From: Patescibacteria group bacterium
Lineage (GTDB): Bacteria > Patescibacteriota > Patescibacteriia > UBA2591 > UBA6264
Direction: 5' to 3'
DNA length: 64,000 bases
Assembly (NCBI GenBank): GCA_021735685.1
Contig: JAIPGN010000001.1
Coordinates: 15,994 to 79,993, forward strand
Shown here piece by piece: positions 30,489 to 64,000 of the stretch. The notes below the pieces were generated by a model, which ran no database searches, was not told the DNA's origin, and worked only from the letters and a program-made list of their open reading frames with translations. How positions within the stretch are numbered: the first letter of the stretch is position 1; each line of letters begins with the position of its first letter. The position numbers and the translations under genes were made by a program.

Positions 30489-30506
30489 TTAAGTTAGAAC
30501 AGATAA

Positions 30507-30577: not shown

Positions 30578-30657
30578 TTTTTTATACTTATTTTTTTCTT
30601 AATAAAAAAAGAAGGTTGTTTTTTGTAACAACCTTCTTTCTTATTAAGAAACGAAAC

Positions 30658-30933: not shown

Positions 30934-31004
30934 AAAACATTCTTTTAATAAACCATAGAAATAAATTCTCTATGGAAATTGATTAAATTATTACGACCTT
31001 CAAA

Positions 31005-32129: not shown

Positions 32130-32351
32130 ATTTTATATATATTATTATAAATATAATAATATTTAAATTTATTTAGTAATAAGGTTGTAGATAAAAGTTA
32201 ATATTTATTTCTTTAATCTTATTTTAGCTTTTTTCTGAAAAAAAGGAAGTGGAAAAAAGGAAAAAAAATGGGTAAAAACTGTGTAAAAAAATATTCAAGA
32301 ATTATTTAAAATATTTAATCTTCAGTTTATTAACAGTAAAAAAATATTCTT

Positions 32352-33320
32352 CTACATTTTTTCAACAGTTTTGGAAAAATATAGAACCCAAGTTAAGTAT
32401 TGAAAAAGAGCCCAAAAAGATAATAAGATCAAAGAAATTAAAGTGATAATAATAGATAAAATAGCAATTAGGATCAAGAAGGCGGAAGGAGATAGAATAT
32501 TTAAAAGAAGTTTTAGGATTAAAGATAAAGGAACTAGAGTTCCAACAAAGATTAAGGAAATAAGAAGAGCGAAAATAATGCTAATGATTAATAAAAATAA
32601 AGAAATTTTAATTATTGATAGCCAGTTTTTGAAAAAGAATTTAATTGATTTTTTGATTGCCGAGAAAGCTTTTTCTTTCTTAATTATAATGAAGAAAATA
32701 CTAAATTTTACAATAAGAGTAAGGAATAGTCCTAAAAGTAAGGAAAAAAGAATATATATTGAACCCCAAAGATTAAAGAATTGATGATAAACATCGATTT
32801 GAGTCTTAAAAAGAATTGGTATATTAAGAAATAAAGCAATGATTATTCCAGAAAGAAAATAAATCAGAACAGAAGGTAAAAGGAATTTTTGGCTAGAAGA
32901 AAATAATTTTTGAAAGGACGTTTTCTTTTCTTTTTTTGACTTTAAAAACCATAAGATTAAATATATTTGAGAAACAAGAGTCAGGTAAGCAAAAAGAAGA
33001 ATTGCAAATAAAAATAACAGATTAAATCCGTTAAGATTTTTGAAGGTTCCTAAAATTAAAGTAATAATATCTGAAAATTCAGAAGATTGAGAGATTAGGA
33101 ACTTTGGAACGTTATTAATTACTGAACTAAAAAAAACATTGATTTCGCCGAGAATACTAAAAATTATTCTAAATTCTTGATTAATAAAGATTATTAAAAA
33201 AAATCCTAAAAATAAAAGTTGAGGATTTTTTAAACAAAGATTAAAAGATTTTTTAATGAATTTTAAAGGACTCCAGAAATTTTCCGAAAAATTGTTTTTG
33301 GTCTTAAAAAGAGAAATCAT
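32352..33320 (-). CDS. polytopic integral membrane protein, hypothetical
   Basis: 322 aa, extremely hydrophobic (I/L/F-rich) with multiple predicted TM helices. No recognisable motif. Confidence 0.4.
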   Translation of the reverse strand: MISLFKTKNNFSENFWSPLKFIKKSFNLCLKNPQLLFLGFFLIIFINQEFRIIFSILGEINVFFSSVINNVPKFLISQSSEFSDIITLILGTFKNLNGFNLLFLFAILLFAYLTLVSQIYLILWFLKSKKEKKTSFQKLFSSSQKFLLPSVLIYFLSGIIIALFLNIPILFKTQIDVYHQFFNLWGSIYILFSLLLGLFLTLIVKFSIFFIIIKKEKAFSAIKKSIKFFFKNWLSIIKISLFLLIISIIFALLISLIFVGTLVPLSLILKLLLNILSPSAFLILIAILSIIITLISLILLSFWALFQYLTWVLYFSKTVEKM

Positions 33321-33332
33321 ATATTTTTTAAG

Positions 33333-35150
33333 TTAATTTTTCATTGCTTTTTCAAACTCTTCTTTTTCTAAAGTTTCTTTCTCAAGAAGTAATTTAGCTA
33401 TTTTTTCTAGCTTTTTTTTGCGTTTGATTAGAATTTTTTCTGCAGCTTGGAAGCTTTTTTCAATAAAACTTGAAACTTCTTGGTCAATTAAAAGAGCAGT
33501 CTTTTCTGAAAAGTTTCTTTTTTCAGAAATTTCTTTCCCTAAAAAGACCATTTCATTTTTTTCTCCAAAGGTGCGAGGGCCTAAAGAATCACTCATTCCG
33601 TATTGAGTGACTAGCTTTTCTGCTAGAAAAGTAGCTCTTTTTAAATCATTAGCAGCACCAGTAGTTATTTCTTTGAATTTTAATTTTTCACTAATAAAAC
33701 CAGCTAAGAGAACGGAAATATTGTTTAGAAATTCCGTTTTAGATTTTAGGTATTTTTCTTCTTTAGGCATTCTTAAAGTATAACCAGCTGCTTGTCCTCG
33801 AGAAATTATTGATATTTTCTGAACTTGGTCGCAACCAGATAGGTAATGACTGACCAAAGCGTGTCCAGCTTCATGATAAGCCACAATTTCTCTTTCTTTT
33901 TTGGTTAAAATATGACTTCTTCTCTCCGGACCTAGCATTACTTTTTCAATACTGTTAAGAATATCTAAATTTTCGATTTTCTTTTTATTTTTCTTAGCTG
34001 CCAAAATAGCGGCCTCGTTTAACAAGCTTTCTAAATCAGCTCCACTAAATCCAGGTGTTCTTTCGGCAATATTTTTAATATTCACGTCTTTTTTTAAAGG
34101 TTTATTCCGAGCGTGAATTTTTAGAATAGATTCTCTTTGTTTGATGTCTGGTAAGTCCAAAACAACTTTACGATCAAAACGACCTGGTCGGAGAAGGGCG
34201 GGATCTAAAATGTCGGGCCGGTTAGTGGCGGCGATTACAATTAAACCAATATTGGGATTAAAACCATCTAATTCTACTAATATTTGATTCAAGGTTTGCT
34301 CTCTTTCGTCATGAGAACCGCCTAAACCAGCTCCTCTTTGACGACCAACTGCATCTAGCTCGTCAATAAAAAGAATAGCTGGCAAGTTCTTTTTAGCCTT
34401 ACTGAACAAATCTCGAACTCGACTAGCTCCCACGCCGACAAACATTTCAATAAATTCTGAGCCAGAGATATGAAAAAAGGGAACACCAGCTTCACCAGCT
34501 ACAGCTCGGCCCATCAAAGTTTTACCACAACCCGGCGGTCCGATCAAAAGCACTCCTTTAGGTATTTTTGCTCCTAAAGATATGTATTTTTTTGGTTTTT
34601 TCAAGAAATCTACAATTTCGTATAATTCATCTTTAGCTTCTTCTACTCCAGCGATATCTTTGAAAGTGGTTCTTTTTTTGTTTTTTTCAAGATTGATATT
34701 TTTAGCTCTACTTTCTCTGAATTTTAAAGCTTGCATTCCGGCGCCTTTCATTTTTCGAGTAAAAAAGAAAATCAGAACAAAAAGTAATAGAAGGGGAATT
34801 AAAAAGGGCAAGACAATAGTTAAAAAGAAGTTCTTACTGCTAAGATCCTTAACTTTAATGTCAATTATTTTAGTTTTTTCTAAAGGGAGGTTGTAATTTT
34901 CAAAAAGATCTCCCAAGGATTGACCTTCTTCTTTGATAACAAATTCTTCTTCTTTGTTATGAAGAAGAATATTTAATTTATTTCCCTCAATAGTGATTTC
35001 TTTTACTTTTTCTCCGAGGATTTGCTCGGATAATCGATTAAAGGTTATTTCTTGGGGTTTATTGCTATGATCACTGAGTAAGCTAAAAATTCCAGAAATG
35101 AATAAAAGAACAACAAAAAAAATGAGAAGATTTTTTAATAAAGACTTCAT
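33333..35150 (-). CDS. ftsH: ATP-dependent zinc metalloprotease FtsH
   Basis: 605 aa. Walker [13 protein letters not shown], the zinc motif HEAGHAL and an N-terminal TM anchor. Confidence 0.9.
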
Positions 35151-35186
35151 GAAAAACTGATTTTAATTAATTGAATTAGATGTGAT

Positions 35187-36257
35187 TTATTTCTTGAGAG
35201 ATAATCCTAAGCGATGATTTTTGGGCTCTATGGAAACAATAGAAAATTCTAAAACATCTCCTTCTTGAGCAAATTCAGAAATATTTTTAATAGGCTGATC
35301 AGAAAGTTCTGAAATATGAGCTAAGCCATGAATTAAAGGATCTAATTCTACAAAAAGACCAAAAGGATTAACTTTTAGAACCTTACCTTTTACTTTTTGT
35401 CCCAATTTATATTTTTCATTTATGTTTAGCCAAGGATCTTTAGTTATTTTCTTAACTGAGAGTGATATTTTGCCCTGATCAGTGATATCAATAATTTCTG
35501 CTTTTACCTTTTCTCCAACTTTAACAACATCTTTAGGATGATCAATGCGTCGCCAAGCTAATTCTGAAATATGAATTAATCCTTCTCGTCCTTGGTCAAA
35601 AGTGATAAAGGCTCCGAAGTCAACTAAACCGCTAATAGTTCCAGTGACTACGTTTCCCACTTTGTATTTATCGGTAATTTCTTTTACTGATCTTTGGTCG
35701 GCTTTTTTTTCAGAAACAATAAGAGTATTATTCTTTTCGTCAGCATTAATGATTTTAACATCAATTTCCTGACCAATGAATTTTTTTAACTTTTCTAATA
35801 TTTTGTTTTTATCTCCTCCTTCTACTCGAGGATAGTTTTCGTTACTTAATTGAGAAACTGGGAGAAAACCTTTTGTTTTTCCGTATTTAATCATTAACCC
35901 CCCTTTATTGGCGGCTGTTACTTTAACTTTAATTTTTTCTCCTTCTTGAGCTATTTTTTCTAGTTTATTCCATATTTTTTTATGACTAGCAGAGCGAAAT
36001 GATAATTCGATTAATCCTTTTTCGTTTTCTAGTTCCATGACAGTGGCTGAAATTTTGTCTCCCTTTTTTAAATTGGAAAAATCTCCAGATTCATCTAAAA
36101 GCTCTATACCGCGAACAATTCCCGTAGTAATGCCTTTGATGTCTAAATAAATTTCATTGCGTCCTATTTCAATAACAATCCCTTCCACCAATTCATTAAC
36201 TTTAGGAAGGAGTTTGGTTATTTGAGAATAGTCTTTTTTCTTTTCTGCTTCTTGCAT
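35187..36257 (-). CDS. rpsA: 30S ribosomal protein S1 (four S1 domains)
   Basis: 356 aa with repeated S1 OB-fold patterns (…GxVxxIxxFGxFVxL…). Confidence 0.7.
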   Translation of the reverse strand: MQEAEKKKDYSQITKLLPKVNELVEGIVIEIGRNEIYLDIKGITTGIVRGIELLDESGDFSNLKKGDKISATVMELENEKGLIELSFRSASHKKIWNKLEKIAQEGEKIKVKVTAANKGGLMIKYGKTKGFLPVSQLSNENYPRVEGGDKNKILEKLKKFIGQEIDVKIINADEKNNTLIVSEKKADQRSVKEITDKYKVGNVVTGTISGLVDFGAFITFDQGREGLIHISELAWRRIDHPKDVVKVGEKVKAEIIDITDQGKISLSVKKITKDPWLNINEKYKLGQKVKGKVLKVNPFGLFVELDPLIHGLAHISELSDQPIKNISEFAQEGDVLEFSIVSIEPKNHRLGLSLKK

Positions 36258-36436
36258 AATTTAACTTGGTTAAATTTTGTCGATTAAGACAAAAATTATT
36301 TAATTAATTAGATATAATAGCTTTTATTTTAACAAGAAGGACTGGATTGTCAATAAAAAAGAAATTGAAATTGATGATAGTTAACCCAAACTTTATTTTT
36401 TAATCTTTTTGCTGATTTTTTTAAAAGAACAAATTT

Positions 36437-36536
36437 AAAAACCGTTAAAAAATTGACGTTTTTAAAAAAATGAAGTTAAAATTCTTTCTCTGAGCTGCTT
36501 TTAGACAAGGCGTTTTTGGGGTCTGGCCCCAAATAT
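36437..36536 (+). repeat. about 100-nt dispersed repeat element, copy B
   Basis: aaaaccgttaaaaaattgacgttttt…ctttctctgagctgcttttagacaaggcgtttttggggtctggccccaaa, lying in the rpsA/ORF36549 divergent spacer. Confidence 0.8.
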
Positions 36537-45979: not shown

Positions 45980-47356
45980 ATGATTAAATTTAAATCTACT
46001 CGATTTATTGTTATTTTTTTCGTGATGACAGTTTTGATTAGCTCAGGATTTAGTTGTCGTTGCGTTTCTAATGAAATGGAGGAAAAGATAGCTCCTATTA
46101 ATTTGGTTTATTGGCGGGCCACAGATAGTCAAGATGCTTTTTTAGAAATAATTAAAAGTTTTCGAAAAAAATATCCTCACATTTCTGTTACCTATCGTTC
46201 TCTTCGACCTGAAGAATATGAACAAGCTTTATTAGAGGCTTGGGCTGAGGATCGAGGGCCAGATATTTTTTCTATTCCCCAAAATTGGTTAGGAAAGTAT
46301 CAAACTAAAATTTTACCTTTAGGGCTTTCTCAAGAAATATTAATGGCTCGGGAAGTGGTTTCAGAGGGAATTCAAAAAGAAGTTAAGGTCATAGAAGAAA
46401 AAAAGAAAGCTCCTAATCTAAGGCAGTTAAAAGAAACTTTTGTCGAAACAGTTCCTCAAGATATTTTAAAAGAAGGGAAGATATATGGACTTCCTTTGTC
46501 TTTGGATGTGTTAGCTCTTTATTATAATCGCGATATTTTAAACGAAGCTGGAATTATTCGCCCTCCTCAGAATTGGCAAGAGTTTGTAGACCAAGCAAGG
46601 ATATTGAATCTTTGGGATCAAGAGGGTAATTTTTTGCGCTCGGCCGTTCCTTTAGGGACTGCTAAGAATATTGAAAATTATCCCGACATTCTTTCTCTTT
46701 TAATGCTTCAGAATGGGACTTCAGTGGTTAATGAAACAGGACAAGCAATTTTTGACCAACCTCTCCCTCAAGACCCAGATTACTTCCCTGGAGAAGAAGC
46801 TCTTCGTTTTTATCTTTCTTTTGCCAATCCTTCTCAAGATATTTATAGCTGGAATCAGGATATGCCAGAATCCTTAAATGCCTTTACTCAAGGTTTGACT
46901 GGTTTTTTGTTTGGCTATTCTAACTATTTAAATTTAATTAAAGAACAGGCCCCCAAATTAAATTTTGACCTTACTAAAGTTCCTCAAATTAAAGAGTCTT
47001 TAAAAGAAGTGAATTATGCTAATTATTGGATGGAAACTGTCTCTAAGAAAAGTCAACATCCGGAAGCAGCTTGGGCTTTTTTGTTACATGCTATCGAACC
47101 AATTAATGCTAAAACTTTTGTAGAGAGGGCCAAAAAACCGACTGCTCATCGATCCCTAATCCAATTTCAATTAGAGGATTTTGATCTAATGCCTTTTGCT
47201 TCTAGTGTTCTTACAGCACAAACTTGGTACCAGGGCAAAAGTTATTCTTTAGTTAAAGAATCTTTTCAAGAAATGATTGAAAGCGTCTTAAATGGACAGA
47301 AAACAATTAAAGAGGCAATTAAATACGCTGCCCAAAGAATTAATTTGACTAATTAG
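45980..47356 (+). CDS. extracellular solute-binding lipoprotein (ABC-transporter SBP family 1-like), orphan
   Basis: 458 aa. Signal peptide with a Cys-containing lipobox-like segment. SBP_bac_1-like pattern throughout. No permease or ATPase genes adjacent. Confidence 0.6.
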   Translation: MIKFKSTRFIVIFFVMTVLISSGFSCRCVSNEMEEKIAPINLVYWRATDSQDAFLEIIKSFRKKYPHISVTYRSLRPEEYEQALLEAWAEDRGPDIFSIPQNWLGKYQTKILPLGLSQEILMAREVVSEGIQKEVKVIEEKKKAPNLRQLKETFVETVPQDILKEGKIYGLPLSLDVLALYYNRDILNEAGIIRPPQNWQEFVDQARILNLWDQEGNFLRSAVPLGTAKNIENYPDILSLLMLQNGTSVVNETGQAIFDQPLPQDPDYFPGEEALRFYLSFANPSQDIYSWNQDMPESLNAFTQGLTGFLFGYSNYLNLIKEQAPKLNFDLTKVPQIKESLKEVNYANYWMETVSKKSQHPEAAWAFLLHAIEPINAKTFVERAKKPTAHRSLIQFQLEDFDLMPFASSVLTAQTWYQGKSYSLVKESFQEMIESVLNGQKTIKEAIKYAAQRINLTN

Positions 47357-47439: not shown

Positions 47440-48048
47440 ATGTTATTAAAGAAAAAAAATATTTTTATTTTTCTGTTAATTGTTCTTTTTGTTTTTTTTC
47501 TAAATTTTAATTTAGCTGAAGCAGCTAATAATTGTAATGAATTTTGTAAAAGCAATTGTGGATTAGAGAACAATCCTAACCTTTGCCGAATAGTAGGGGC
47601 GGCAGAAGAAAATATGATTTGTAGTTGTTGTCCGGCAGTAATTGGTCAGGGCAATAAGTATGAGTGTTATTGCCAAAATAGCAATAAAGTAATTTGTGAG
47701 GTTGGAGGATTGTTTGGAGGAGAGAAAATGGCAATATGTTCTTGTTGCGGAGATTGTGATTTAAGTGATTTTTTGTATCTCGGAGTGAATGTTGCTGAAA
47801 ATATTTTAAAGTATATGGGGGCTTTAGCTCTTTTACTTTTTGTTTTAGGAGGGATTATGTGGATAACTTCGGGTGGCTCAAAGACCAGAATTCAAAAGGG
47901 AATGGCTATTATTAAAGGATCTTTGATTGGTTTAGCGATTATTATATTTGCTTTTTTGATGATAAGGGTTATAATGGAGAAAGTTTTAAAAGTGGAAGAT
48001 CAGTATCTTCCTCAATCTACTAGCGCGCAAGAACAAAAAATTTCTTAA
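47440..48048 (+). CDS. paralog 1 of small two-helix membrane protein family, with an N-terminal Cys-rich (14 Cys) ectodomain
   Basis: 202 aa. Sec signal peptide, a Cys-rich about 90-aa domain, then the helix1-WITSGG-helix2 module shared with the four downstream paralogs. Confidence 0.6.
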   Translation: MLLKKKNIFIFLLIVLFVFFLNFNLAEAANNCNEFCKSNCGLENNPNLCRIVGAAEENMICSCCPAVIGQGNKYECYCQNSNKVICEVGGLFGGEKMAICSCCGDCDLSDFLYLGVNVAENILKYMGALALLLFVLGGIMWITSGGSKTRIQKGMAIIKGSLIGLAIIIFAFLMIRVIMEKVLKVEDQYLPQSTSAQEQKIS

Positions 48049-48051
48049 TTT

Positions 48052-48402
48052 ATGAAGAAAAAAAATATTTTATTATTTTTAGTATTGAGTTGCCTTCTAG
48101 TTTTTGGTTGGAATGGTATAACCCAAGCGCAATCAGTAGTAAGTTTGCCTGATCCCTTAAAAGGACAAGGAGATGATCCTTCGGTTTTAGTTGGAAATAT
48201 TTTGAATTATGTTTTAGGGATGTTAGGCGTTTTGGCTTTAGTAATGTTTGTTTATGGTGGATTGATGTGGATGACTTCAGGTGGAGCCAGTGAAAAAATT
48301 AAAAAAGGAAAGGATACTATTGTTTGGTCAATCTTGGGATTGGCTTTAATTTTTTTCAGCTATGCCCTTTTGGATTTTATTTTAGCCGCTTTACAGCAAT
48401 AA
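48052..48402 (+). CDS. paralog 2 of small two-helix membrane protein family (VirB2/TrbC/TraA-like pilin topology)
   Basis: 116 aa. Signal peptide …TQAQS, then …VLGMLGVLALVMFVYGGLMWMTSGGASEKIKKGKDTIVWSILGLALIFFSYALLDF…. Confidence 0.6.
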   Translation: MKKKNILLFLVLSCLLVFGWNGITQAQSVVSLPDPLKGQGDDPSVLVGNILNYVLGMLGVLALVMFVYGGLMWMTSGGASEKIKKGKDTIVWSILGLALIFFSYALLDFILAALQQ

Positions 48403-48481
48403 GTATTGACTTGACAATTCATTAAGTAGTTTTATATTATTAAGTTAATAGGTCGAATTATTAATTATTTTAAGAAGAAAT

Positions 48482-48880
48482 ATGTTGAAAAAAATGAGAT
48501 CAAAGGCAAATCTTTGGTTTTTGGTAGTAATGATGATGGTTAGTTTGTTTTTCTCTTTACCTGTTTTAGCTCAGGAAGAAGAAAACCTTAATCTTCGAGA
48601 CGGTCTTGATGATTTTCTAACTGGTTCAGAGATGGGAGGCAAGCCAATTGGATTTGTGATTGGACGAATAGTGCAGGGAGTTTTAGGTATTCTTGGCTTG
48701 GTCTGTTTAGTTATCTTTGTTATTGCTGGTTTCCAGTGGATGACCTCTGCTGGCAGCAAAGAAAAAATTCAAAGTGCGCAAAAATCAATGAGCGCAGCAG
48801 TAATTGGTTTAATTATTGTGATTATTTCTTGGGCGGCGATTGATTTTATTGTTGGCGCTTTAGAATCTGTAACTGGATAA
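48482..48880 (+). CDS. paralog 3 of small two-helix membrane protein family
   Basis: 132 aa. Signal peptide …VLAQEE, then …VLGILGLVCLVIFVIAGFQWMTSAGSKEKIQSAQKSMSAAVIGLIIVIISWAAIDF…. Confidence 0.6.
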   Translation: MLKKMRSKANLWFLVVMMMVSLFFSLPVLAQEEENLNLRDGLDDFLTGSEMGGKPIGFVIGRIVQGVLGILGLVCLVIFVIAGFQWMTSAGSKEKIQSAQKSMSAAVIGLIIVIISWAAIDFIVGALESVTG

Positions 48881-48915
48881 AATTTTTCTTCTTAAAGTTA
48901 AAAAAGAGGTTTACA

Positions 48916-49290
48916 ATGAAAAAAAAGTTATTATCTTTTTTTAGCTTGTTTTTGTTATTTTCCTTGGTAATTGCTCCGGCTGTTTTTGCTCAGGATTTAG
49001 GACAAGCTCTTATGGATGATTTTCAAGACGAGGCTGGCATTGGCGATAAAAGCCTTGCTGAGGTCACAGGTAGTGTTGTTAAGGCAATTTTGAGTGTTTT
49101 AGGATTAGTTGCTTTAATTATTTTTATTATCGCTGGCTTCCAGTGGATGACCTCAGGTGGCAATAAAGAAAAGATTCAAGGCGCGCAAAAATTGATGGGA
49201 GCAGCAGTAATTGGTTTAATTATTGTGATTATTGCCTGGGCTGCCACTTACTTTGTGGTTCAATCCTTGACTGGTGTCACTGGAGCTTAA
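48916..49290 (+). CDS. paralog 4 of small two-helix membrane protein family
   Basis: 124 aa. Signal peptide …VFAQD, then …ILSVLGLVALIIFIIAGFQWMTSGGNKEKIQGAQKLMGAAVIGLIIVIIAWAATYF…. GAGG lies 9 nt upstream, the only SD-like start among the paralogs. Confidence 0.6.
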   Translation: MKKKLLSFFSLFLLFSLVIAPAVFAQDLGQALMDDFQDEAGIGDKSLAEVTGSVVKAILSVLGLVALIIFIIAGFQWMTSGGNKEKIQGAQKLMGAAVIGLIIVIIAWAATYFVVQSLTGVTGA

Positions 49291-49325
49291 CAAAAGATTA
49301 TTATCTTTGTAATTTAAGCTAATTT

Positions 49326-49718
49326 ATGTTTTTTTGTCGTTTCCGAGAAAAGGTCTCAAGACTTTGGGGAGCAATGATGTTTTTTTTCTTTTGTTTAATG
49401 ACTCCAGCGCAAGCTATTAACATTCGAGAAGGATTAACATCAGCTGCTTCTAGCGCTGGCCTAAATACCAATCAATCTTTGGCCCTAACCGTTGGCTTAG
49501 TATTTCAGAAAGTGTTAGGTGTTTTAGGACTAATTTTATTAGTTTTATTTGTGGCGGGTGGTTTAATGTGGATGACTTCGGGAGGAAGTACTGATAAAAT
49601 AAAAAAAGCTCGAGGCCTGCTTATTAATGCTGTAATTGGCATGGTTCTTGTGATTTTAGCTTACGCCTTAACTGATTTAGTGATTGGGGGTATAGAGAAA
49701 GCGATAATTACGAATTAG
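49326..49718 (+). CDS. paralog 5 of small two-helix membrane protein family
   Basis: 130 aa. The true start is probably the internal MMFFFFCLMTPAQA. …VLGVLGLILLVLFVAGGLMWMTSGGSTDKIKKARGLLINAVIGMVLVILAYALTDL…. Confidence 0.55.
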   Translation: MFFCRFREKVSRLWGAMMFFFFCLMTPAQAINIREGLTSAASSAGLNTNQSLALTVGLVFQKVLGVLGLILLVLFVAGGLMWMTSGGSTDKIKKARGLLINAVIGMVLVILAYALTDLVIGGIEKAIITN

Positions 49719-49826
49719 CTTAACATAGTTTTTCAAGAAACTATAAAAATGCACTCAGATATTTTCTGGGTGCATTTTGTTTTTAAAATTTTACTTTGTC
49801 TTTTAGAAGTGTTAAAATAAATTAAT

Positions 49827-51243: not shown

Positions 51244-52482
51244 TTATTTTCTAGGGTATATATATCCTAGAATTTGCCAACCACCCTGAGAAGTGTTTTG
51301 CCAGGCAGTAGTGCGGCGTAAAGTACGAGGGGCTGGTTTTTGAGTCCAGCTAGGATTGGATGGTCCATTCATTTCTGTGACGTAGATATAATTATCATCA
51401 AAACTTTCAATATAAGCGACGTGCCCATACCAATTATTGCATTTTAAAACTACGATACTTCCTTCATCTCCAGGATGTAAGGTTAAGCCGGTTTGGAAAC
51501 CACTGTTGCGGGCATTAGTGAGCCAAGTACGAGCATTACCCCAAGTAGGAGGCACGCATTGTCCTAATTCAGTGGCCCATTTATAAGCTACCCAATCTGT
51601 ACATTGACCTGGTTGCCAGTAGTAACGATGGCAATTAGGGGCACAGGACTTATTTCTCCAATCACTATAATTACAATCACTTCTTTCAGTAGTGAGAATA
51701 GGGGCAGGAGCGCTAACTTTTTTAGGAGAAGTTGGTTGAGGGGTGGGTTTAGGAGCAGGAGCAACAGGTAAAGGTGAACCATTGGGAATAATTAATTCCT
51801 CGCCAACAGTTAAGCTGTCTGGGTTCTCAATTTCATTAATTTCAATTATTTCTTCGATTTCAGCTTTGTATTTATTTGCTATTTGAGAAAGTTTTTCATT
51901 ATTTTTTATTTGATGTAAAATCCCGTCTACCGGTAAAATAATTAATTCATCTCCTGGTTTAATGTTAGAGCGCCAGTAAGTTAAATCATTGGCCCAAAGA
52001 ACAGTGTAAACATTAAGTCCGTATTTTTCGGCAATATCCCAAGGGTTGTCGTTGGGTCGAACGATATATTTTTCAACTTCAGTACGAGTGGGGATTATGT
52101 TTTTTTCAATTACACTGTTTCCAGCCACAAAAGCGGTATCATTAAGAGCAAGGGCTATCTTGAAGTCATTCTCTCTTTCGCGAGTAAGGCTAGCGATTTG
52201 AAAGTCAGCTTTTTCTTCTTTTTGAATGGCTTGAAAGTGGATCTCTTGATTATTATTTTCAGATGAAGTTGGCAAAGAAACAATTTGTTTACAATCTTTT
52301 ATTTGTTGAAAAGAGAAAAACACAAAGAATGCAATAACTAAAAAAACGGGCAATTGTTTCCCCGGTTCTATTTTTTGACAGATTCGCTTTAGGCAGTGCC
52401 AGAAGTAAAGGGCACGAAGAATGCCTTTTTTTATAAATCCGATCATAAATTTAGCGAATTTTCTTAAAACACTATCTTGCAT
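51244..52482 (-). CDS. membrane-anchored peptidoglycan hydrolase with two LysM domains and a C-terminal CHAP domain
   Basis: 412 aa. LysM-like blocks (YIVRPNDNPWDIAEKYG… and HQIKNNEKLSQIANKYK…). CHAP Cys/His pattern (…GQCTDWVAYKW…YGHVAYIE…). A P/T-rich linker. Confidence 0.65.
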   Translation of the reverse strand: MQDSVLRKFAKFMIGFIKKGILRALYFWHCLKRICQKIEPGKQLPVFLVIAFFVFFSFQQIKDCKQIVSLPTSSENNNQEIHFQAIQKEEKADFQIASLTRERENDFKIALALNDTAFVAGNSVIEKNIIPTRTEVEKYIVRPNDNPWDIAEKYGLNVYTVLWANDLTYWRSNIKPGDELIILPVDGILHQIKNNEKLSQIANKYKAEIEEIIEINEIENPDSLTVGEELIIPNGSPLPVAPAPKPTPQPTSPKKVSAPAPILTTERSDCNYSDWRNKSCAPNCHRYYWQPGQCTDWVAYKWATELGQCVPPTWGNARTWLTNARNSGFQTGLTLHPGDEGSIVVLKCNNWYGHVAYIESFDDNYIYVTEMNGPSNPSWTQKPAPRTLRRTTAWQNTSQGGWQILGYIYPRK

Positions 52483-56002: not shown

Positions 56003-56103
56003 AAAACCGTTAAAAAACTTACGTTTTTCGAAAATTGACCTTAAAACCATTTCTCGGAGCGGGTTTTAGAGAGGCAGTTTTTGGGGTCTGGCCCCAACTA
56101 AAG
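56003..56103 (+). repeat. about 100-nt dispersed repeat element, copy D
   Basis: aaaaccgttaaaaaacttacgtttttcg…ctcggagcgggttttagagaggcagtttttggggtctggccccaactaaag. Provides a spurious upstream start for ORF 56035. Confidence 0.8.
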
Positions 56104-56112
56104 GGATTTTTT

Positions 56113-56823
56113 ATGGAAGAAAAGAAGGAGCATAATAAAAAGAAGAGGAAAATTTTTCAATTATTTTTGTTTATTGTCTTGGGTGGATTTATCTTATTTC
56201 TGGGTTTTGTTCAGCTGAAAACAGCGATCTATGGCCCTTATTTTTTGCAAAAAGAAAATAATTCTAATTTTTCTGAAGAAGAAATTTTGAATATTCTGAC
56301 TCAACAGGCTCAGGAAATGGACACAGATCAAGACGGTCTTTCTGATTATGAAGAATTCTACACCCATCAAACTTCTCCTTATCTTGGGGATTCAGATGGA
56401 GATAATTTTAACGATTTAGAAGAGATAGAGGCAGAGAGCGACCCTTTGGATCCTTTTTCGACCCCTTATCGTCAATCTCCTTCTGAAACAGAATCGACAA
56501 CAGGAGAAAAGGGGTTAATTTGGGAGGCAAGTTTGCCGGAAAATCTTTCAGCTGAAGAGATTCGTTCTTTATTGTTGCGCCTGGGAATTGAATCTGAGAT
56601 TGTGGAAAATATTAGTGACAAAGAACTGGAAAACCTATATAATGAAACCAAGGAAGAGACAGGGATTAATCCTCAAGTTTTGCTTAATCCCTCTTTATTA
56701 GATATAGATACTGAATCTTTAAGACAATCTTTAATAGAGGAAGGAATAGATCCTTTGCTTCTGGAAGATATGGATGACAAAACTTTGAAATCAATGTTTT
56801 TGGAATATTTAAATTTAAAATAA
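56113..56823 (+). CDS. single-pass membrane protein with thrombospondin-type-3/dockerin-like Ca-binding acidic repeats
   Basis: Probable true start MEEKKEHNKK… at 56113. The upstream part of ORF 56035 is repeat-encoded. TM FQLFLFIVLGGFILFLGFV. DTDQDGLSDYEE and DSDGDNFNDLEE are DxDxDG motifs. Confidence 0.5.
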   Translation: MEEKKEHNKKKRKIFQLFLFIVLGGFILFLGFVQLKTAIYGPYFLQKENNSNFSEEEILNILTQQAQEMDTDQDGLSDYEEFYTHQTSPYLGDSDGDNFNDLEEIEAESDPLDPFSTPYRQSPSETESTTGEKGLIWEASLPENLSAEEIRSLLLRLGIESEIVENISDKELENLYNETKEETGINPQVLLNPSLLDIDTESLRQSLIEEGIDPLLLEDMDDKTLKSMFLEYLNLK

Positions 56824-56842: not shown

Positions 56843-59800
56843 ATGATTTTTAAGGAATCAGGCAATGCTTTTAAAAAAGGAGCGACCTTGTTGATGGTAT
56901 TTTTTTTGGTCGTTTCTTTTTCTTTTGTTCCTCAAAAGGTTCAAGCTCAGTTTATAGTTACTGATATTTTTAAAATGGGTTGGGATGTAGCCAAAAAGGC
57001 TTGGGAACATGGCGGAGCAATTGCTTACCATAACGCCCTTAGTTATGTTCTTCAGCAAATGGCTAAACAAACCGGAGAATGGTTGGCAGAAGGAGGCAAG
57101 GGAAAAAAGCCTCTTTTTTGGACTGATCCAAAAGAATTTTTTGAAAAAGCAGGAGATCAAGTACTGGGAGAGTTTATTGACGGCATGGCCAGCAGTTTTT
57201 TGGGTCAAAGTTTATGTGATAATTTAGATTACACGGTTAAGTTTAACATTTTAGCCAATCTGGACCCTAATTATGCGCAAACCAAATGGGCGGAAGAGCC
57301 AGAATGTTCATTTTCTCAAATGAAGAAAAATCTAGAAAAAATGAAAATATCTAATATGGCTGAATTTTCTACTGAATTAAAAGAAGGAAAAGTAGATAAG
57401 CAGGAAAGCATGATTACTACTTTAATTCAAGGAGACTCTGTTTTAACCAGCGAACAAAAAATATGGTTGGATGGCGAATTAGATACTTGTCCAGAGCCTG
57501 GCTCTTGTCCAGAGGGAGAAGACTATATTGTTATTTGGGACTCTCATTATTATGAGATAGCAAATGCTGGAGCTGCTGCCTATTTACATTCTTATACTCA
57601 AAAATTTAAAGATATTTTAGAAGAATTAAAGGCAATTAGTGAAGGAGAGACTGAAGGTCAAAAACAACATGATGTTTTAGAAGGCACAGCGGTTAGAAAA
57701 TTTAAAGATTTGCAAGATAAATTAGCTCCAGATACAGGCCCAGAGCTTTGGGGGGATGGGGAGGTTTATTCTCCAGGAAGCAATTCAAGAACTGGTCTAA
57801 AGGCCTTAAATGAAGTTAGCGCAGAATGCGTTAGAAATAGTCAACAAATTTGTGATAATCCTGATTGTGTGGCTCTTTGTCATATTGGTGGCACAAACAA
57901 TTGCCAGAGCGATGAATCAACTTGTTTGGACCGTTTAAAAAGAATTAAGTCTTACAGTAATCAATTAGTAGAATGGGCGAGCACTATCCAGGATATGACT
58001 GATCGGTCTATTGCTAATTGGGAAGCTAGAGAGGCAATTCCCGACTTGGATCCGCTTACTGATGCCGAGTTTATGTTTAATCCAGAAAGTAATCCCATTG
58101 GGATTCAAATGAGCTTGGAAAGCAAGCTTTTTGCTCAACAAACAGAAGCAATTGAGAAAAGTAAATTTTTCCGTCAGTTACAAGGCTCTATGAATGCGGT
58201 TACTTCCAAAGTTTCTGGTTTAGTTAAGTGGCCATCTACTTTAGTGGATGAAAAAACTAGAGATATGGTGGAAGCTTCGCAAGGCAGTATTGCTGAAACT
58301 ACGGGAGTGGCAGCAGCGGATGCCTTAAATGTTTTGGCTAGCACCTTTCTTCAACAATTTATGAAAAGGATAATGAAAGGTTCTCTTAATCCTGCTTTGG
58401 ATAGTGGAGGAGTTACTGTTCCTTCTGACCCTGACGCTCCTCCAGCTAACAAGGTTATTTCGGTTTTAAGCGGAATTGAAATTGTTCCTTTGAGTCAGAG
58501 TAGTCAAGAAATGACGATTTATGACGAGTTTACGGTTTGCCCTAGCGGAACAGACCAAAAACATATTTCTCAATTTAATTGTTTAATTGATAATAAATTA
58601 TCTCGGGCCATGGAAGAAAAATTGACTTTAGCTGAAGCCATGGAAAGGGATTTCTTGAGCCCATCTGAACGTTTAGGAGTAGAGGGCCAGTCAAATAGTT
58701 TGTTGGCTGAATCTAATTTAAAGAAGTTAAGATTATTAGGAATTATTCCCTTAGGACTAGAAATTGCTCATAAAAAAATTATTGAAGAGCAGTACAGCAA
58801 TGGTTTGCCTTTATCTGAAGTTATAGCTGGTTTTAATCAAAGAGGGGAAGATGGGATTTGTGGTACTTTAGATCAAGGAGAAAGTCCTTTTTGTAATCTA
58901 GTTGATCCTAATTGGGTTTTAAGGGCCGATAGTTATTTGTGCGAATTAACTGGCTATTCAGCTATTCCGGGCCGAGATAGCGTTTTTCGCCAAGAATCTT
59001 GTTTAGATTTTAAAACTTGTATTTCCGAATCAGAAGAAAGTTGTGATACTTGGTCTTACTGTACTCGTGCCAAAAACGTCTGGCGATTTGATGGAGATGA
59101 ATGTGATGCTCAATACAGTAGCTGTACCTCTTATGTTAATCAAAATAATGGAAAAACCTATTCTTATTTGGCCAATACTTTGAATTTTGAAAATTGTGAT
59201 TCCAATAATGTGGGGTGTCAATGGTATTGTTCAGATTGGGATCCAGTATATTCAGGGGTTGAAAATTGGTCTTGTGCTGCTCCAGGTTGGCGAAAATATA
59301 ATTGTAATTTAGGCTCTCCTTGTGAGACTGAAGCTGGATGTGATTGTAGTTGTGATGGCGATAACGGATGTCCGTCGGGAATTGGATCTTGTTTGGTCGC
59401 CGAAGGCGCTACTTATTGTACTTTAGAAAAACCTCATCCTCAAAATACTATATTCTTTAGTAGTCATGTGGATGATTGTAAAGAAACAGAAGAGGGTTGT
59501 TCTCAGTATATTAGGACGACCCCAGGCTTAGGCGTTAATTTTTTAGTAAATGGTAGTTTTGAATTAGGAGTTAATTCGGGAGGAGCTCCCCTAGGCTGGA
59601 GTTCCAATCAAGAGCAATTGATTAGTAAGTTTAACCCAGAAGAAGGATCCATTCCTAATGGGAATAATGTTTTAAGAATTCAAGGGGAAGGAGGACCGTA
59701 TGGGATATTTTTAAAGCAAGAGGTTAATAATATTTCTCCATCTTCAAGTAATTTAATTATCTCTGGTTATTACAAAGATGTTGATAGTTCGGTGAGTGGT

Positions 59801-62800
59801 GATAATAAATTAAGGGTTAAGGCTTGTTATGATTCTGGTTGTAGTGACTTTGACCTTAAAGAAAAACCAATTGACCTTGAAGAAAATCAATGGAAATATA
59901 ATGTTCTTACAATTTCTTTGAATAAAAATAAATCAATTGATCATTTAGTGGTGGAGGCCATAAGAAATGCTGTTAATAATTTTTCCGGAATTCTTTACTT
60001 AGATTCTTTTCAGGTTAGAAACGAAAGCGGTAATTCTTCTTATCGCGAGTATGGCTCGCACGGTAATGTTTATTTAAAAAGCGCTCCTCAATGGATGAAT
60101 TGTTATGATACTGATTCTTCTAACGATCATGCAGATTGTGTTAATTTTATTTCTCTTTGTTCAGCTGAAGAGGTTGGCTGTGAGCTCTATACTTCTGTCA
60201 GCAATCAGGGCGATATTCAGATTCCAGCCATAGTTCAAGAATCAGATCAATGTCCTTCTACTTGCGTTGGTTATGAGACTTTTGAAGAAATTGGCTCTTT
60301 TTTTGATCCTCGAGTCAATCGTTGGGTGGAAATGATTCCGCAAACTGCGCGAAAATGTTTAGCTCCAGGTTGTGAGGCGTTTACCAATTTAGATTTTTTG
60401 GCTCAAGGTGGTGAAGCTGAGGAATATTATACTTATCTTCGTCAGTGCGTTAAAGTTAATCAAGAAGGATTGGCGATTATTGATTCGGCGGGAGAAGAAA
60501 TTTCTCCAGCCTCTAATGATACTTGCCAGTATTACTATACTTGGATCGGAGAAGAAGAGTCTGGCTATCAATTAAGAAGTTATTATTTGGAAAAAGATTC
60601 TAATTTGGGTGGTCCACTTCAAGTTAGTTCAAGCCCTAATCCAAGTTGGGGAGAATGTGATGAAAATAATTTAGACAACCCTCATTGTCGTCAATTTTAT
60701 GACGATGAAGGTAATGTTTATTATCGTTTTTATAAAAATACGATTAGCTGTTCTCAGGATTGTAAACCTTATCGTCGAGAGATTGATGACGAAATTTATA
60801 TGGCTATTGGCACAGAAGGAGAGGTCTGCCGCCCCCAAGACTTAGGTTGCCGCGAGTACAAAGGGGCTGCCTACGGAAGTATGCGTAATTTATTTGAAGA
60901 TAAATTTTTAAATGAAAATAGTCTTGCAGGTTGGGAGAGAGTAGAACTAAGCACAGAGTCTTTAGATCGTTTTGGTTATTCTCTTCAGGCCAACGATACT
61001 TATGTGAAAAAGCCTGCATCTTCTTATCTTAAACAGGGAGGAGTTTATTCTTTGAAGCTTTGGGTTAAAGGAGGTGGGAATTATAGAGCTTCTTTGGGAA
61101 GCGTTGATTTCCTCCAAGGAGAGAGCCAGGCTGTTGTTTCTGAAGAGTGGCAAGAAATAAAGTTTGGAACAATTTATTTTAATCAAGAGTTAAGTGGTGA
61201 TGAAAATTTAATTATTTACGGCCCCAATGAATTTTATTTAGATAATATTTCTTTGAATAAAGTAGAGGATGATCTTTATTTAATTAAAGATTCTTGGGAT
61301 ACTCCTCAAATTTGTGATTTGGATGCTGACGGAAATATTTCTCCAGGATACATGGTTGGTTGTCGGGCTTATCAAGACCGAGTTAAGAATTATCATTATT
61401 TTAAATCTTTTAGCCGTCTTTGTTCATCCGAAGCTGCTGGTTGTGAGGCTTTGATCAATACTTATAATTCAAGCTCCCCTTTCTCGGAACAATTTAATTC
61501 TGGCTCACCGGACGGAGACGAGTTAACTGTCTTAGCCGACGCTACGGTCTACCGAATATATGATTCTGAATATTCTTGTGCGGCCGAGAAAAAGGGTTGT
61601 CAAAAATTTGGTCAACCTGAGTTCAGTGAAGAGGAAGAGGTGGTTGGCTATCAAGATGTCTTTTTAATCAATGACCCCGATGCTTATCAGTTGCAATCTA
61701 TACTTTGCGACTTCAGTGGATGGGGTTGCCAAGAATATAATGGCCCGGTTTATTTTAAAGACCCGGGAAGTAAAGTTTGCGAGTACCGAGAAAATGTTTC
61801 GCTTTATGGAGAAACCAAAAATGGTTGGTTTAAGCAGGGAACCAACAATCCTTGTTATCTTGAAAGTGGTCTTGCCTATCAACCCTATGGTTCGGTTTAT
61901 GGAATTCGTTTTAATGATGACCCCCTTTATGATGGTTGGGCGGGAATTTGCCCAGGCGGTCAAGATGGCTGTACCCAGTTTATTGATCCTTTGGCTCAAA
62001 ATTTAATTTTAAATAGTGGCTTGGAAGAAGATGTTAATGAGGACGGGGTTCCCGATCATTGGGATTCTTATGCTTTGCCTGATTCTTTTGATTTGCAAAA
62101 TAACGGTTGTTTGAGTGGTCAATGTTGGTTTGTGGATACTACGAGTGATACTGCGGCCGCTAGTCAGTATATCAAAATTAATCCCGGCTCTACTTACGAG
62201 CTTTCTGCTTGGGTGAAAGCAAGAGAGGGATCGACAGGATCTGTTAAAATTTATCTCGCTTATGTCGACCAGAAGCCTTCTGGCGACTGGATAGATGTTG
62301 TTTCTGTTGCTAATGATAATGATTTGCAAGGAAAATGGGAAAAATTAAGCGTGAGTTTAATCGCTCCTCTTGATGCTCAATATGCTCGAGTTTTGGTTCC
62401 TTATGTCAGTGATTTAATGGAGGTTCATGTTGATAATATCTCCTTAATTGAGAAAAATTCTTCAAAAGGAAGCTATTATTTTATTAATAACGACAATTTA
62501 GATCGTTCTTCTTGCGCTGGTATGGTTGGAGTCAAAGATGGTTGTATTCTTTTTAATGATACCTCTTTATCCGGTCGTTTGCCTTATGATTCGGCGTCTA
62601 CTTATGCTTTAAGCCAAGAGAATAATGATTTAGCAGTACCAGTTAGTAATATTCCTGTTGGTTCGGGGGCGGAAGGAGATAGTAATTTAATTTTAAAAGT
62701 AAAAAGAGATCGAGTCTGTGGGGAGTGGTTGCATTGTTCTGGGTCTTATCAGGTTTGGGACAGCTCTATTGATGATTATCGCCAAGTCTGTGATTCTTGG

Positions 62801-64000
62801 GTTCGTTGCGATCAATTAATTGGTGAGGCCAAGAACGCTCAATGTGGGCATGTTGTTTATGACCCTAATCCTCAAGTTTTAACGCCAGAACTTTATCAAG
62901 AAAGAAATGTTTCTTGGAAAGGGATGGATTATGTTGGTTATTCTCTTCTGGGCACTTATCCAGTAGAGAGGCTAACTCCCACAGAAAACGAGCTTAAATA
63001 TCAATTAACCTATTTTGATCAAGATGGTAATGATTTGGGGATTGATAATCAAGGAACAATATTAGATAAGTCTGTCCACGTTTATCCAGAAAAAGATTCT
63101 CCTTTTAAGAAAAATGCTGGTGAATATTATAATAAAGTTAATTTATGTAATAGTTCGGAAGAAGACGATGCCAGTTCTCTTTATCCAGATTGTCAGGGTG
63201 TTTACAAAAAAGTTGAATATGGGGATCAATATAGCGGGCAAACTAAATATTTTAATTTTGATGATAGTGGTGCAGCTGATCAAGGGGTTTGTAGAATGAG
63301 CGGTGAGGAATGCGGCGACGATGAGACTGATTGTATTACTGCAGGTGACGAATGTTTGCCTCCATTAAGAGTGACTGATGCAGTTGGTCTGCGTGGTTTT
63401 TGTTTAGAGCCAGATGAGTCTAAACCGGACGAGATTGATGCCTGCATTACTTGGTGGCCCGGAGCAGCTGTAGGAGACATGGACGTTTTTAATATGTATT
63501 ATTCAGCTGGTTATGTGCCTCCAGCAGCTACAAAATGGTATTGTGCTAGTGATGACAGTGGGGATGAATTGGGGATAGCTAGGCAAGCGTGTGATTATAA
63601 TTGTAAAAGAGGTTTTGGTGGTAGTTATTCTAAATATATTGGCTTGTCGGATAGTCAATCTGACTGGCGGGTTAATGGGAAAAGTGGTTGTGGGGGGGAT
63701 GATATTAATTCAGGAATTTTTAGATTAGGAGAGATTGAAAAAATAGAAGTTTATATTTTTGCAGACGATGGCACTAGCAGTGGTAGCTGCACAAGCCCTC
63801 ATTGTCAAGGTTATGTAACTCTTAACAAAGAAACTGGTTGGTGGAGGGGAATAAAGAATAATGATCAAGGTAGCTGTAACAAGGGGAATGGCGAAGGCTT
63901 GCCCACTTCTTTTCCTTCTAGTTTTCCCCTGAGTGCACCAGATGGAGGAGGGTCTACGTCGGTAAAGGCTTGCTTCAATGAGGCTTGTGATAGTTATGAT
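56843..64000 (+). CDS. giant secreted cysteine-rich surface protein (partial, over 2380 aa, continues beyond the window) with at least three CBM4/9-like beta-sandwich domains
   Basis: Open frame from ATG 56843 to the window end with no stop. An alternative start at 56894 is preceded by AAGGAG. Signal peptide MVFFLVVSFSFVPQKVQAQ. Dense Cys pairs (CxxC…C). Three segments with VNGSFE…/LNSGLEED…/FLNENSLAGWE… jelly-roll CBM-like signatures. Confidence 0.7.
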   Translation, partial: MIFKESGNAFKKGATLLMVFFLVVSFSFVPQKVQAQFIVTDIFKMGWDVAKKAWEHGGAIAYHNALSYVLQQMAKQTGEWLAEGGKGKKPLFWTDPKEFFEKAGDQVLGEFIDGMASSFLGQSLCDNLDYTVKFNILANLDPNYAQTKWAEEPECSFSQMKKNLEKMKISNMAEFSTELKEGKVDKQESMITTLIQGDSVLTSEQKIWLDGELDTCPEPGSCPEGEDYIVIWDSHYYEIANAGAAAYLHSYTQKFKDILEELKAISEGETEGQKQHDVLEGTAVRKFKDLQDKLAPDTGPELWGDGEVYSPGSNSRTGLKALNEVSAECVRNSQQICDNPDCVALCHIGGTNNCQSDESTCLDRLKRIKSYSNQLVEWASTIQDMTDRSIANWEAREAIPDLDPLTDAEFMFNPESNPIGIQMSLESKLFAQQTEAIEKSKFFRQLQGSMNAVTSKVSGLVKWPSTLVDEKTRDMVEASQGSIAETTGVAAADALNVLASTFLQQFMKRIMKGSLNPALDSGGVTVPSDPDAPPANKVISVLSGIEIVPLSQSSQEMTIYDEFTVCPSGTDQKHISQFNCLIDNKLSRAMEEKLTLAEAMERDFLSPSERLGVEGQSNSLLAESNLKKLRLLGIIPLGLEIAHKKIIEEQYSNGLPLSEVIAGFNQRGEDGICGTLDQGESPFCNLVDPNWVLRADSYLCELTGYSAIPGRDSVFRQESCLDFKTCISESEESCDTWSYCTRAKNVWRFDGDECDAQYSSCTSYVNQNNGKTYSYLANTLNFENCDSNNVGCQWYCSDWDPVYSGVENWSCAAPGWRKYNCNLGSPCETEAGCDCSCDGDNGCPSGIGSCLVAEGATYCTLEKPHPQNTIFFSSHVDDCKETEEGCSQYIRTTPGLGVNFLVNGSFELGVNSGGAPLGWSSNQEQLISKFNPEEGSIPNGNNVLRIQGEGGPYGIFLKQEVNNISPSSSNLIISGYYKDVDSSVSGDNKLRVKACYDSGCSDFDLKEKPIDLEENQWKYNVLTISLNKNKSIDHLVVEAIRNAVNNFSGILYLDSFQVRNESGNSSYREYGSHGNVYLKSAPQWMNCYDTDSSNDHADCVNFISLCSAEEVGCELYTSVSNQGDIQIPAIVQESDQCPSTCVGYETFEEIGSFFDPRVNRWVEMIPQTARKCLAPGCEAFTNLDFLAQGGEAEEYYTYLRQCVKVNQEGLAIIDSAGEEISPASNDTCQYYYTWIGEEESGYQLRSYYLEKDSNLGGPLQVSSSPNPSWGECDENNLDNPHCRQFYDDEGNVYYRFYKNTISCSQDCKPYRREIDDEIYMAIGTEGEVCRPQDLGCREYKGAAYGSMRNLFEDKFLNENSLAGWERVELSTESLDRFGYSLQANDTYVKKPASSYLKQGGVYSLKLWVKGGGNYRASLGSVDFLQGESQAVVSEEWQEIKFGTIYFNQELSGDENLIIYGPNEFYLDNISLNKVEDDLYLIKDSWDTPQICDLDADGNISPGYMVGCRAYQDRVKNYHYFKSFSRLCSSEAAGCEALINTYNSSSPFSEQFNSGSPDGDELTVLADATVYRIYDSEYSCAAEKKGCQKFGQPEFSEEEEVVGYQDVFLINDPDAYQLQSILCDFSGWGCQEYNGPVYFKDPGSKVCEYRENVSLYGETKNGWFKQGTNNPCYLESGLAYQPYGSVYGIRFNDDPLYDGWAGICPGGQDGCTQFIDPLAQNLILNSGLEEDVNEDGVPDHWDSYALPDSFDLQNNGCLSGQCWFVDTTSDTAAASQYIKINPGSTYELSAWVKAREGSTGSVKIYLAYVDQKPSGDWIDVVSVANDNDLQGKWEKLSVSLIAPLDAQYARVLVPYVSDLMEVHVDNISLIEKNSSKGSYYFINNDNLDRSSCAGMVGVKDGCILFNDTSLSGRLPYDSASTYALSQENNDLAVPVSNIPVGSGAEGDSNLILKVKRDRVCGEWLHCSGSYQVWDSSIDDYRQVCDSWVRCDQLIGEAKNAQCGHVVYDPNPQVLTPELYQERNVSWKGMDYVGYSLLGTYPVERLTPTENELKYQLTYFDQDGNDLGIDNQGTILDKSVHVYPEKDSPFKKNAGEYYNKVNLCNSSEEDDASSLYPDCQGVYKKVEYGDQYSGQTKYFNFDDSGAADQGVCRMSGEECGDDETDCITAGDECLPPLRVTDAVGLRGFCLEPDESKPDEIDACITWWPGAAVGDMDVFNMYYSAGYVPPAATKWYCASDDSGDELGIARQACDYNCKRGFGGSYSKYIGLSDSQSDWRVNGKSGCGGDDINSGIFRLGEIEKIEVYIFADDGTSSGSCTSPHCQGYVTLNKETGWWRGIKNNDQGSCNKGNGEGLPTSFPSSFPLSAPDGGGSTSVKACFNEACDSYD

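Follow-up and report, generated by a model that had tools for sequence, protein, structure and literature searches.

The Patescibacteria account for a large part of bacterial diversity and apparently live attached to other cells. Here we analyse a 64,000-nt stretch of contig JAIPGN010000001.1 of a Patescibacteria group bacterium (assembly GCA_021735685.1; hereafter the window), in which five consecutive small genes at positions 47440-49718 encode proteins resembling the pilins of type IV secretion systems (T4SSs). We consider it likely that these are VirB2-like pilins of a chromosomal, monoderm-type (MPF-FATA-like) T4SS in a Parcubacteria-like Patescibacterium.

Arrays of this kind were first noted as 'small Sec-secreted proteins' or a 'secreted protein array' (McLean et al., 2020, PMC7427843). 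In S. epibionticum the pilin series is essential and lies within the T4SS cluster (Wang et al., 2023, PMC10633639), and a 2025 review repeats this essentiality while limiting its wording to a 'potential to elaborate conjugative pili'. A recent survey found VirB2-like pilins across 1,948 assemblies of Patescibacteria, 1,135 of which have them near virB4, and 441 arrays of 2-11 pilin genes with a mean within-array identity of 25% and a maximum of 54% (Quiñonero-Coronel et al., 2025, PMC12102498). That survey used the same Pfam model, PF18895 (T4SS_pilin), as we do here; an array was defined as at least two PF18895 or PF04956 (TrbC) genes, in tandem or one non-pilin gene apart, and 'near virB4' as within 20 coding sequences (CDS). 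The five consecutive pilin genes of the window are a tandem array in this sense. The earlier note on this DNA had proposed an undescribed surface filament; since tandem VirB2-like arrays have already been published (McLean et al., 2020; Wang et al., 2023; Quiñonero-Coronel et al., 2025), the window array is instead a further example. It shares with the published arrays the PF18895 match, the size and divergence ranges, a chromosomal location near the putative replication origin and ksgA, and the lack of a relaxase or coupling protein nearby; a monoderm-type virB4 with TrsD and PrgI within 20 CDS is predicted from synteny. Unlike the S. epibionticum array, which is embedded in the T4SS cluster, it stands seven unrelated genes away from the machinery. 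The accessions of the source genome (MCF79067xx, K9K85) do not appear in the part of the survey's supplement that was examined.

The Gram-negative VirB2, TrbC and TraA pilins have in common with the window proteins a long Sec signal peptide, a mature two-helix hairpin of ~70-100 aa and a short basic loop; they also depend on a VirB4 ATPase, as the window pilins would be expected to do. They differ in that the window proteins score just under the TrbC cut-off and that the host is a monoderm without an outer-membrane core complex. Those systems have one major pilin, compared with five to six paralogs here, and no VirB5 was identified. Similarity also extends to the integrative and conjugative elements (ICEs) of Mycoplasma, in which the pilin-like Mbov_0395/MMCAP2_0565 (model NF045849) is partnered by the VirB4 Mbov_0397: paralog 3 of the window lies at the NF045849 cut-off, and the VirB4 found downstream in relatives of the window also matches the Mbov_0397 model (E 7e-76), giving the same pilin-plus-ATPase pairing as in an ICE of a wall-less monoderm. 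The Mycoplasma ICE differs in being mobile and conjugative and in having just one pilin-like gene, whereas the window locus is fixed, chromosomal and arrayed, with no relaxase in view.

The five open reading frames (ORFs) share one orientation and are separated by spacers of 3, 79, 35 and 35 nt (Table 1). Their alignment gives the consensus VLGxLGLxALVxFVxGGxMWMTSGGSKEKIQKA…AVIGLxIVIxAxAxxDFI, in which 12 columns, grouped around G..W.TS.G…I, are invariant. For paralogs 1-4 a hydropathy scan revealed an N-terminal hydrophobic segment followed by two transmembrane (TM) segments; for paralog 5 it detected both TM segments, and the short core of the signal peptide fell under the scan threshold. 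Putative cleavage sites, assigned by eye with the -3/-1 rule and not by a predictor, are AEA|A, TQA|Q, VLA|Q, VFA|Q and AQA|I for paralogs 1-5, which leaves predicted mature proteins of 174, 90, 102, 99 and 100 aa. The earlier note had described five co-oriented genes with a shared motif, signal peptides and two-helix hairpins, and its coordinates proved exact and its motif was reproduced by alignment. It had also allowed that the array might be an assembly artefact; this is ruled out, as the same five genes with matching flanks recur in an independent 658,661-bp Joint Genome Institute (JGI) contig and in further assemblies. A type IV pilus pilin reading was rejected: the N-termini are of Sec type with AxA-like sites and not class III, there are two TM helices and not one, and no type IV pilus pilin family was matched by the paralogs in Pfam and NCBIfam scans.

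Family membership is directly supported by profile matches, and the VirB2/TrbC likeness suspected from the DNA alone is borne out. Paralogs 2-5 exceed the PF18895 gathering cut-off (31.0-42.5 bits vs 26.6). Paralog 1 falls under it at 17.9 bits; it is matched by a hidden Markov model of the pilin family, and its orthologues P0029, P0032 and P0033 carry PF18895. No paralog reaches the 27.9-bit cut-off of PF04956: paralog 2 comes closest with 26.6 bits, the next two score 22.0 and 16.7, and paralogs 1 and 5 have no match to this model in the Pfam scan. Orthologues of paralog 2 at three related loci (L005, L006, L094) carry precomputed TrbC matches. Paralog 3 just reaches the NF045849 cut-off (40.2 vs 40 bits), a model named 'pilin-like conjugal transfer protein' from Mycoplasma ICEs, and is identical in sequence to MCF7906729.1, which NCBI names 'pilin', on a 268,542-bp contig labelled 'Patescibacteria group bacterium'; the five pilins have the accessions MCF7906727-MCF7906731 (locus-tag prefix K9K85). 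The family is very large, its profile being matched by 83,597 clusters (50% identity) at E <= 0.001. On these profile matches the five proteins are VirB2/TrbC-type T4SS pilins. A holin reading was set aside given the pilin-family matches; no search of phage families (PHROGs) was made.

AlphaFold predicts for paralog 3 a helical hairpin (H56-87/H93-131) with predicted local distance difference test (pLDDT) values of ~78-91 as 10-residue block means. For paralog 1 a hairpin (H108-143/H148-181) is predicted with low confidence, with an overall pLDDT of 60 and values of 43-70 in its Cys-rich domain, and the model is too poor for a fold search. The topology bears on a proposal made for the Saccharibacteria arrays, with the ptx/ptl locus of pertussis toxin as the model, in which such genes encode soluble effectors or toxin subunits that are secreted by Sec and exported by the T4SS (McLean et al., 2020). 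Signal peptides on all five proteins and the T4SS neighbourhood would fit this proposal. Two strongly hydrophobic helices per mature protein are incompatible with a soluble periplasmic toxin subunit, the matches are to pilin and not toxin families, and the arrays have since been reinterpreted as encoding pilins (Quiñonero-Coronel et al., 2025; Wang et al., 2023; the 2025 review). Since two TM helices persist after removal of the signal peptide, we reject Ptx-like soluble secreted subunits, and regard an effector role of any such kind as highly improbable.

All window ORFs of at least 90 aa were scanned against Pfam. Among them there is no VirB4, VirD4, VirB6, TrsD or PrgI, in agreement with the earlier note, and the remaining ORFs are housekeeping or envelope genes. 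The implication that a T4SS is absent is not supported: the apparent lack probably reflects where the window ends, as the machinery block directly follows the giant ORF in five syntenic relatives. In these five syntenic lineages, in which the giant protein ranges from 77% down to 37% identity, the order is pilin array, yebC, ruvC, LysM-CHAP hydrolase, leuS, ksgA, TSP3-like protein and giant protein, followed by a 7-TM protein of ~880-970 aa, a PrgI-like protein, a TraC-like/TrsD protein and VirB4. The T4SS synteny is thus directly supported. VirB4 is the 12th CDS after paralog 5 in all five, and so inside the 20-CDS range of the survey.

The close relative on JGI contig Ga0376525_000002 keeps this synteny, with neighbouring proteins 71-93% identical. 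Past its giant gene there follow a protein of 882 aa with ~7 TM segments, a long hydrophilic tail and a precomputed TrbL_3 match; a 531-aa protein; a 146-aa PrgI-like protein (26.0 bits vs 27); a 219-aa TraC-like protein that matches TrsD and the VirB4 N-terminus; a 626-aa ATPase that passes the cut-off of the NCBIfam model 'VirB4-like conjugal transfer ATPase, CD1110 family' (330.3 vs 325); two small proteins; and a sixth T4SS_pilin of 306 aa with 18 Cys. The ~880-aa protein might be VirB6-like, a reading based on where it lies and on its architecture of seven TM segments plus tail. In the source organism, a short contig carries the first two genes of the block after the giant ORF, encoding 892-aa and 530-aa proteins, the former 68% identical to the relative's 882-aa protein. 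By synteny, its VirB4 gene should start ~6.7 kb past the window end, and a sixth pilin gene is presumably also present beyond the window.

Further observations concern this region. The sixth pilin of the close relative is encoded just after VirB4 (L090:27194-28114) and has its extension C-terminal to the hairpin. In one of the four other syntenic lineages, that of the relative Parcubacteria 4484_255 (L092:24040-27918), VirB4 is 1,292 aa long and contains an intein (Intein_splicing plus LAGLIDADG_3) within the P-loop ATPase. In one lineage (L005/L006) a small GIY-YIG nuclease ORF lies between pilins 2 and 3 (11098-11355), and a glycosyltransferase/sulfatase block separates the array from yebC. 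On the source organism's short contig, an ORF of the 23S_rRNA_IVP family (L089:15513-15884) follows the 530-aa gene. One giant-protein homologue of 2,925 aa (P0052, 37% identity) is labelled 'Nanoarchaeota archaeon' by NCBI, and its contig is probably mis-binned Patescibacteria.

The array is old and maintained, as had been suspected. In comparison with three other genomes whose arrays have five genes, each window paralog best matches the paralog at the same position (p1-p1 to p5-p5); identity is 72-86% for the close relative and 47-67% for the two distant genomes, whereas the window paralogs share only 29-50% with one another. Where an array has four genes, p3 and p4 map to one single gene; p3/p4, at 50% identity, is therefore the youngest duplication. 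Against the close relative (dS ~0.33-0.79), the ratio of non-synonymous to synonymous substitution rates (dN/dS) of the pilin genes lies at 0.12-0.28 and that of the flanking genes at 0.07-0.13, indicating that all five pilins are under purifying selection. With a positional orthologue of its own in other lineages, each paralog probably has a distinct role, as a major or a minor subunit.

The survey proposed, by analogy with the VirB2 paralogs of Bartonella and Anaplasma, that such paralogs serve antigenic or host-range variation (Quiñonero-Coronel et al., 2025), in which case they would be interchangeable variants of a major pilin. The high within-array divergence (29-50% identity here; survey mean 25%), array sizes of 3 to 12 genes between lineages and pilin dN/dS values 2-3 times those of neighbouring housekeeping genes are in keeping with such a pool. 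A pool of interchangeable variants is nevertheless unlikely: every position has its own orthologue across lineages (47-86% identity), all five genes are under purifying selection, and the first position is almost always occupied by a structurally distinct pilin; fixed, distinct roles account better for this pattern.

This first pilin carries an extra extracellular domain, as the earlier note had it: all 14 Cys of paralog 1 lie between the signal peptide and the first hairpin helix, and they include a CSCCGDC motif. Among 12 homologues of the paralog 1 subfamily, down to 45% identity, 12 Cys are invariant, as is the C-terminal YLPxS…IS tail. In related array loci the first pilin after the solute-binding protein (SBP) gene described below is almost always longer and Cys-rich; the extension sits before or after the hairpin, both positions being predicted to be extracytoplasmic. 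The motif C-x-C-C-G-D-C occurs in ten loci, the window included. Two paralog 1 homologues, P0032 and P0033, have an extra C-terminal Cys-rich stretch and a PG_binding_1 domain (PF01471) past the YLPxS tail, which would put a peptidoglycan-binding domain at the outer end of the pilin.

Directly upstream of the array lies a gene for a solute-binding-fold protein whose closest solved relatives in the PDB are sugar or oligosaccharide SBPs. It had been described as an orphan, and turns out instead to be the conserved first gene of the pilin cluster. Our sample comprised 80 loci from GTDB species representatives and loci fetched by exact look-up; 42 non-redundant loci have at least three small pilin genes and six of them begin at a contig edge, leaving 36 testable. 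In 31 of these an SBP homologue (31-92% identical) immediately precedes the first pilin on the same strand, the spacing being -76 to +432 nt, and in four more it is directly upstream of the main pilin run (35/36 in total); in the one other locus it is located elsewhere. PBP1A, the other upstream neighbour in the window, is kept in only 12 loci, so the linkage of SBP and array exceeds general synteny. The unit of SBP, Cys-rich pilin and small pilins spans Parcubacteria-like, Magasanik-, Uhr-, Falkow-, Komeili- and Buchananbacteria. Pfam scanning of the 64-kb window revealed no gene for an ABC permease or ATPase, and none was present among the called genes of the syntenic loci inspected individually. 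The literature searched, which took in the main text and part of the supplement of the 2025 survey, mentions neither the SBP gene nor a Cys-rich leading pilin.

As a guess, the upstream sugar-type SBP would be a dedicated accessory, acting in glycan recognition or in extracytoplasmic pilin handling. That 'sugar-type SBP, Cys-rich extended pilin, small pilins' forms an undescribed conserved operon, in which the SBP physically works with the T4SS pilus, is possible though doubtful. If true, the SBP would be, for example, a glycan-recognition head, a sensor of host surface polysaccharide or an extracytoplasmic pilin-handling factor, and the Cys-rich first pilin would link it to the filament. PrgZ, encoded in the conjugation locus of pCF10, is a pheromone-binding SBP and an OppA-type peptide binder. 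It resembles the window protein in its SBP fold, its monoderm T4SS context and the lack of permease genes of its own; it differs in belonging to another SBP family and in being unlinked to pilin genes, and serves as an analogy only.

Hairpins of the pilin family also occur in larger proteins. In 33 related loci (e.g. L012, L015, L016, L043; L015:10001-18817) a T4SS_pilin module scoring above cut-off is N-terminal in paired giant ORFs, the first of ~500-900 aa and the second of 1,800-3,460 aa, with Big_5/TIG immunoglobulin (Ig)-like domains. These look like pilin-anchored giant surface proteins, and an SBP was found in none of the 33 loci. Three other proteins, P0055 (820 aa), P0060 (1775 aa) and P0085 (1382 aa), contain 8-17 tandem pilin hairpins behind one signal peptide; P0055, the only one of them read, has no internal signal peptides and linkers of 25-40 aa.

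It could be argued that the hairpins form, with the SBP, an envelope module independent of VirB4, such as a membrane oligomer or anchor for the capture or uptake of host glycans. The SBP-array linkage is much tighter (35/36 testable loci) than that between array and VirB4: Walker-A scans and clustering found no VirB4 within 10 kb of the 80 related loci, only the housekeeping ATPases RuvB, RecG, ClpB, AddAB and FtsH. The hairpin's use as an N-terminal anchor of giant Ig-domain proteins and its occurrence as poly-hairpin polypeptides point the same way, as does the lack of an ABC permease or ATPase adjoining the SBP. Such a module seems quite unlikely all the same, given the homology of the family to VirB2/TrbC and to ICE pilin-like families, the sixth pilin gene inside the VirB4 block, and an array-to-VirB4 order conserved down to 37% giant-protein identity. 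Moreover, in S. epibionticum, the only species tested, both the machinery and the pilin series, which is part of the T4SS cluster, are essential (Wang et al., 2023).

Several points weigh against identifying the five genes as T4SS pilins. Fold searches with the paralog 3 model did not separate its hairpin from generic helical hairpins and were uninformative because such hairpins match thousands of unrelated structures. The five-paralog profile, run against PDB sequences, found no match even at E 10, and no solved pilin. The poly-pilins of 8-17 fused hairpins fit awkwardly with simple extraction of single subunits. The array and the machinery are set apart by seven unrelated genes, of which yebC, ruvC, leuS and ksgA are housekeeping genes. 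VirB4 is unseen in the source genome, whose contig stops after the second machinery gene, so that the link from array to VirB4 there rests on synteny. The precomputed TrbL_3 match of the ~880-aa protein was not reproduced by hmmscan, and the literature searched contains no observation of a pilus on a Patescibacterium with such a system.

If the five are T4SS pilins, as we favour, Sec would insert each pre-pilin and signal peptidase would remove the leader. The two-helix hairpin would then rest in the membrane, its termini on the outer side and its basic WMTSGG…K loop on the inner, until a machine of VirB4, TrsD, PrgI (VirB3) and the VirB6-like protein draws out the subunits and polymerises them; synteny predicts that this machine is encoded 8-12 genes after paralog 5, just beyond the window. 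The product would be a pilus, or a conduit spanning the cell wall, for contact with a host cell or for transfer to or from it, in keeping with the attached lifestyle. Paralog 1 would display its disulfide-rich ectodomain on the filament surface or at the tip, as an adhesin or initiator. The LysM-CHAP hydrolase, a candidate VirB1-like enzyme by its domains and synteny, may open the wall.

Table 1. Features of the pilin locus and its surroundings in the window (positions in nt; +, forward strand; -, reverse strand).
Feature	Position	Strand	Description
dnaN	31005-32129	-	
SBP_bac_1 solute-binding-fold protein	45980-47356	+	458 aa; N-terminal membrane or lipid anchor; PF01547 80.9 bits
Pilin paralog 1	47440-48048	+	202 aa; signal peptide, 14-Cys ectodomain, pilin hairpin, conserved C-terminal tail YLPxS…IS
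Pilin paralog 2	48052-48402	+	116 aa; PF18895 42.5 bits; PF04956 26.6 bits
Possible internal promoter, sigma-70-like	48411-48440	+	spacer between paralogs 2 and 3; TTGACA-16-TATATT, 11/12 matches; consensus match only
Pilin paralog 3	48482-48880	+	132 aa; PF18895 35.8 bits; NF045849 40.2 bits
Pilin paralog 4	48916-49290	+	124 aa; PF18895 33.6 bits; 50% identical to paralog 3
Pilin paralog 5	49326-49718	+	130 aa; PF18895 31.0 bits
Terminator-like hairpin	49746-49778	+	14 bp stem then T run; 28 nt past paralog 5 stop; consensus match only
LysM-CHAP peptidoglycan hydrolase	51244-52482	-	LysM and CHAP domains; syntenic in all relatives
TSP3-like single-TM protein	56035-56823	+	directly upstream of giant ORF; position conserved in syntenic relatives
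Giant secreted Cys-rich CBM_4_9 surface protein	56843-64000	+	2708 aa in full; extends ~1 kb beyond window end

The envelope-related neighbours listed in the earlier note (PBP1A, the SBP, the LysM-CHAP and TSP3-like proteins and the giant Cys-rich protein) were all confirmed. Elsewhere in the window, the cumulative GC skew has its minimum at ~30-36 kb and gene orientation switches at ~36.4 kb; the replication origin probably lies within the window, around 28000-36500. DnaA was not recognised, and the ORF upstream of dnaN (32352-33320, -) encodes a 7-TM protein without a Pfam match. The pilin array is ~11-17 kb from the putative origin, which agrees with the published origin-proximal placement of Patescibacteria T4SSs. 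A lone PilT/T2SSE-type ATPase of the type IV pilus retraction family (29356-30399, +) stands between efp and two tRNA genes and is unrelated to the T4SS pilins. At 4695-6606 (-) a 16S rRNA gene (5081-6606) and tRNA-Ile are followed by protein-coding genes where a 23S gene would be expected, and the rRNA operon is thus unlinked. A GT4 glycosyltransferase at 25111-26182 (-) appears as two overlapping ORFs (Glyco_transf_4, 25652-26182; Glycos_transf_1, 25111-25692), the split likely reflecting a frameshift, a pseudogene or a sequencing error.

The locus leaves the overall picture of Patescibacteria T4SSs as it is and adds one more example, from a Parcubacteria-like lineage. It also illustrates that a pilin array may seem to lack a T4SS only because the stretch examined is short. 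The conserved orthologue of each paralog argues for a filament of distinct subunits and against antigenic variation, and the near-constant carbohydrate-type SBP and Cys-rich leading pilin point to glycan recognition as part of the mechanism.

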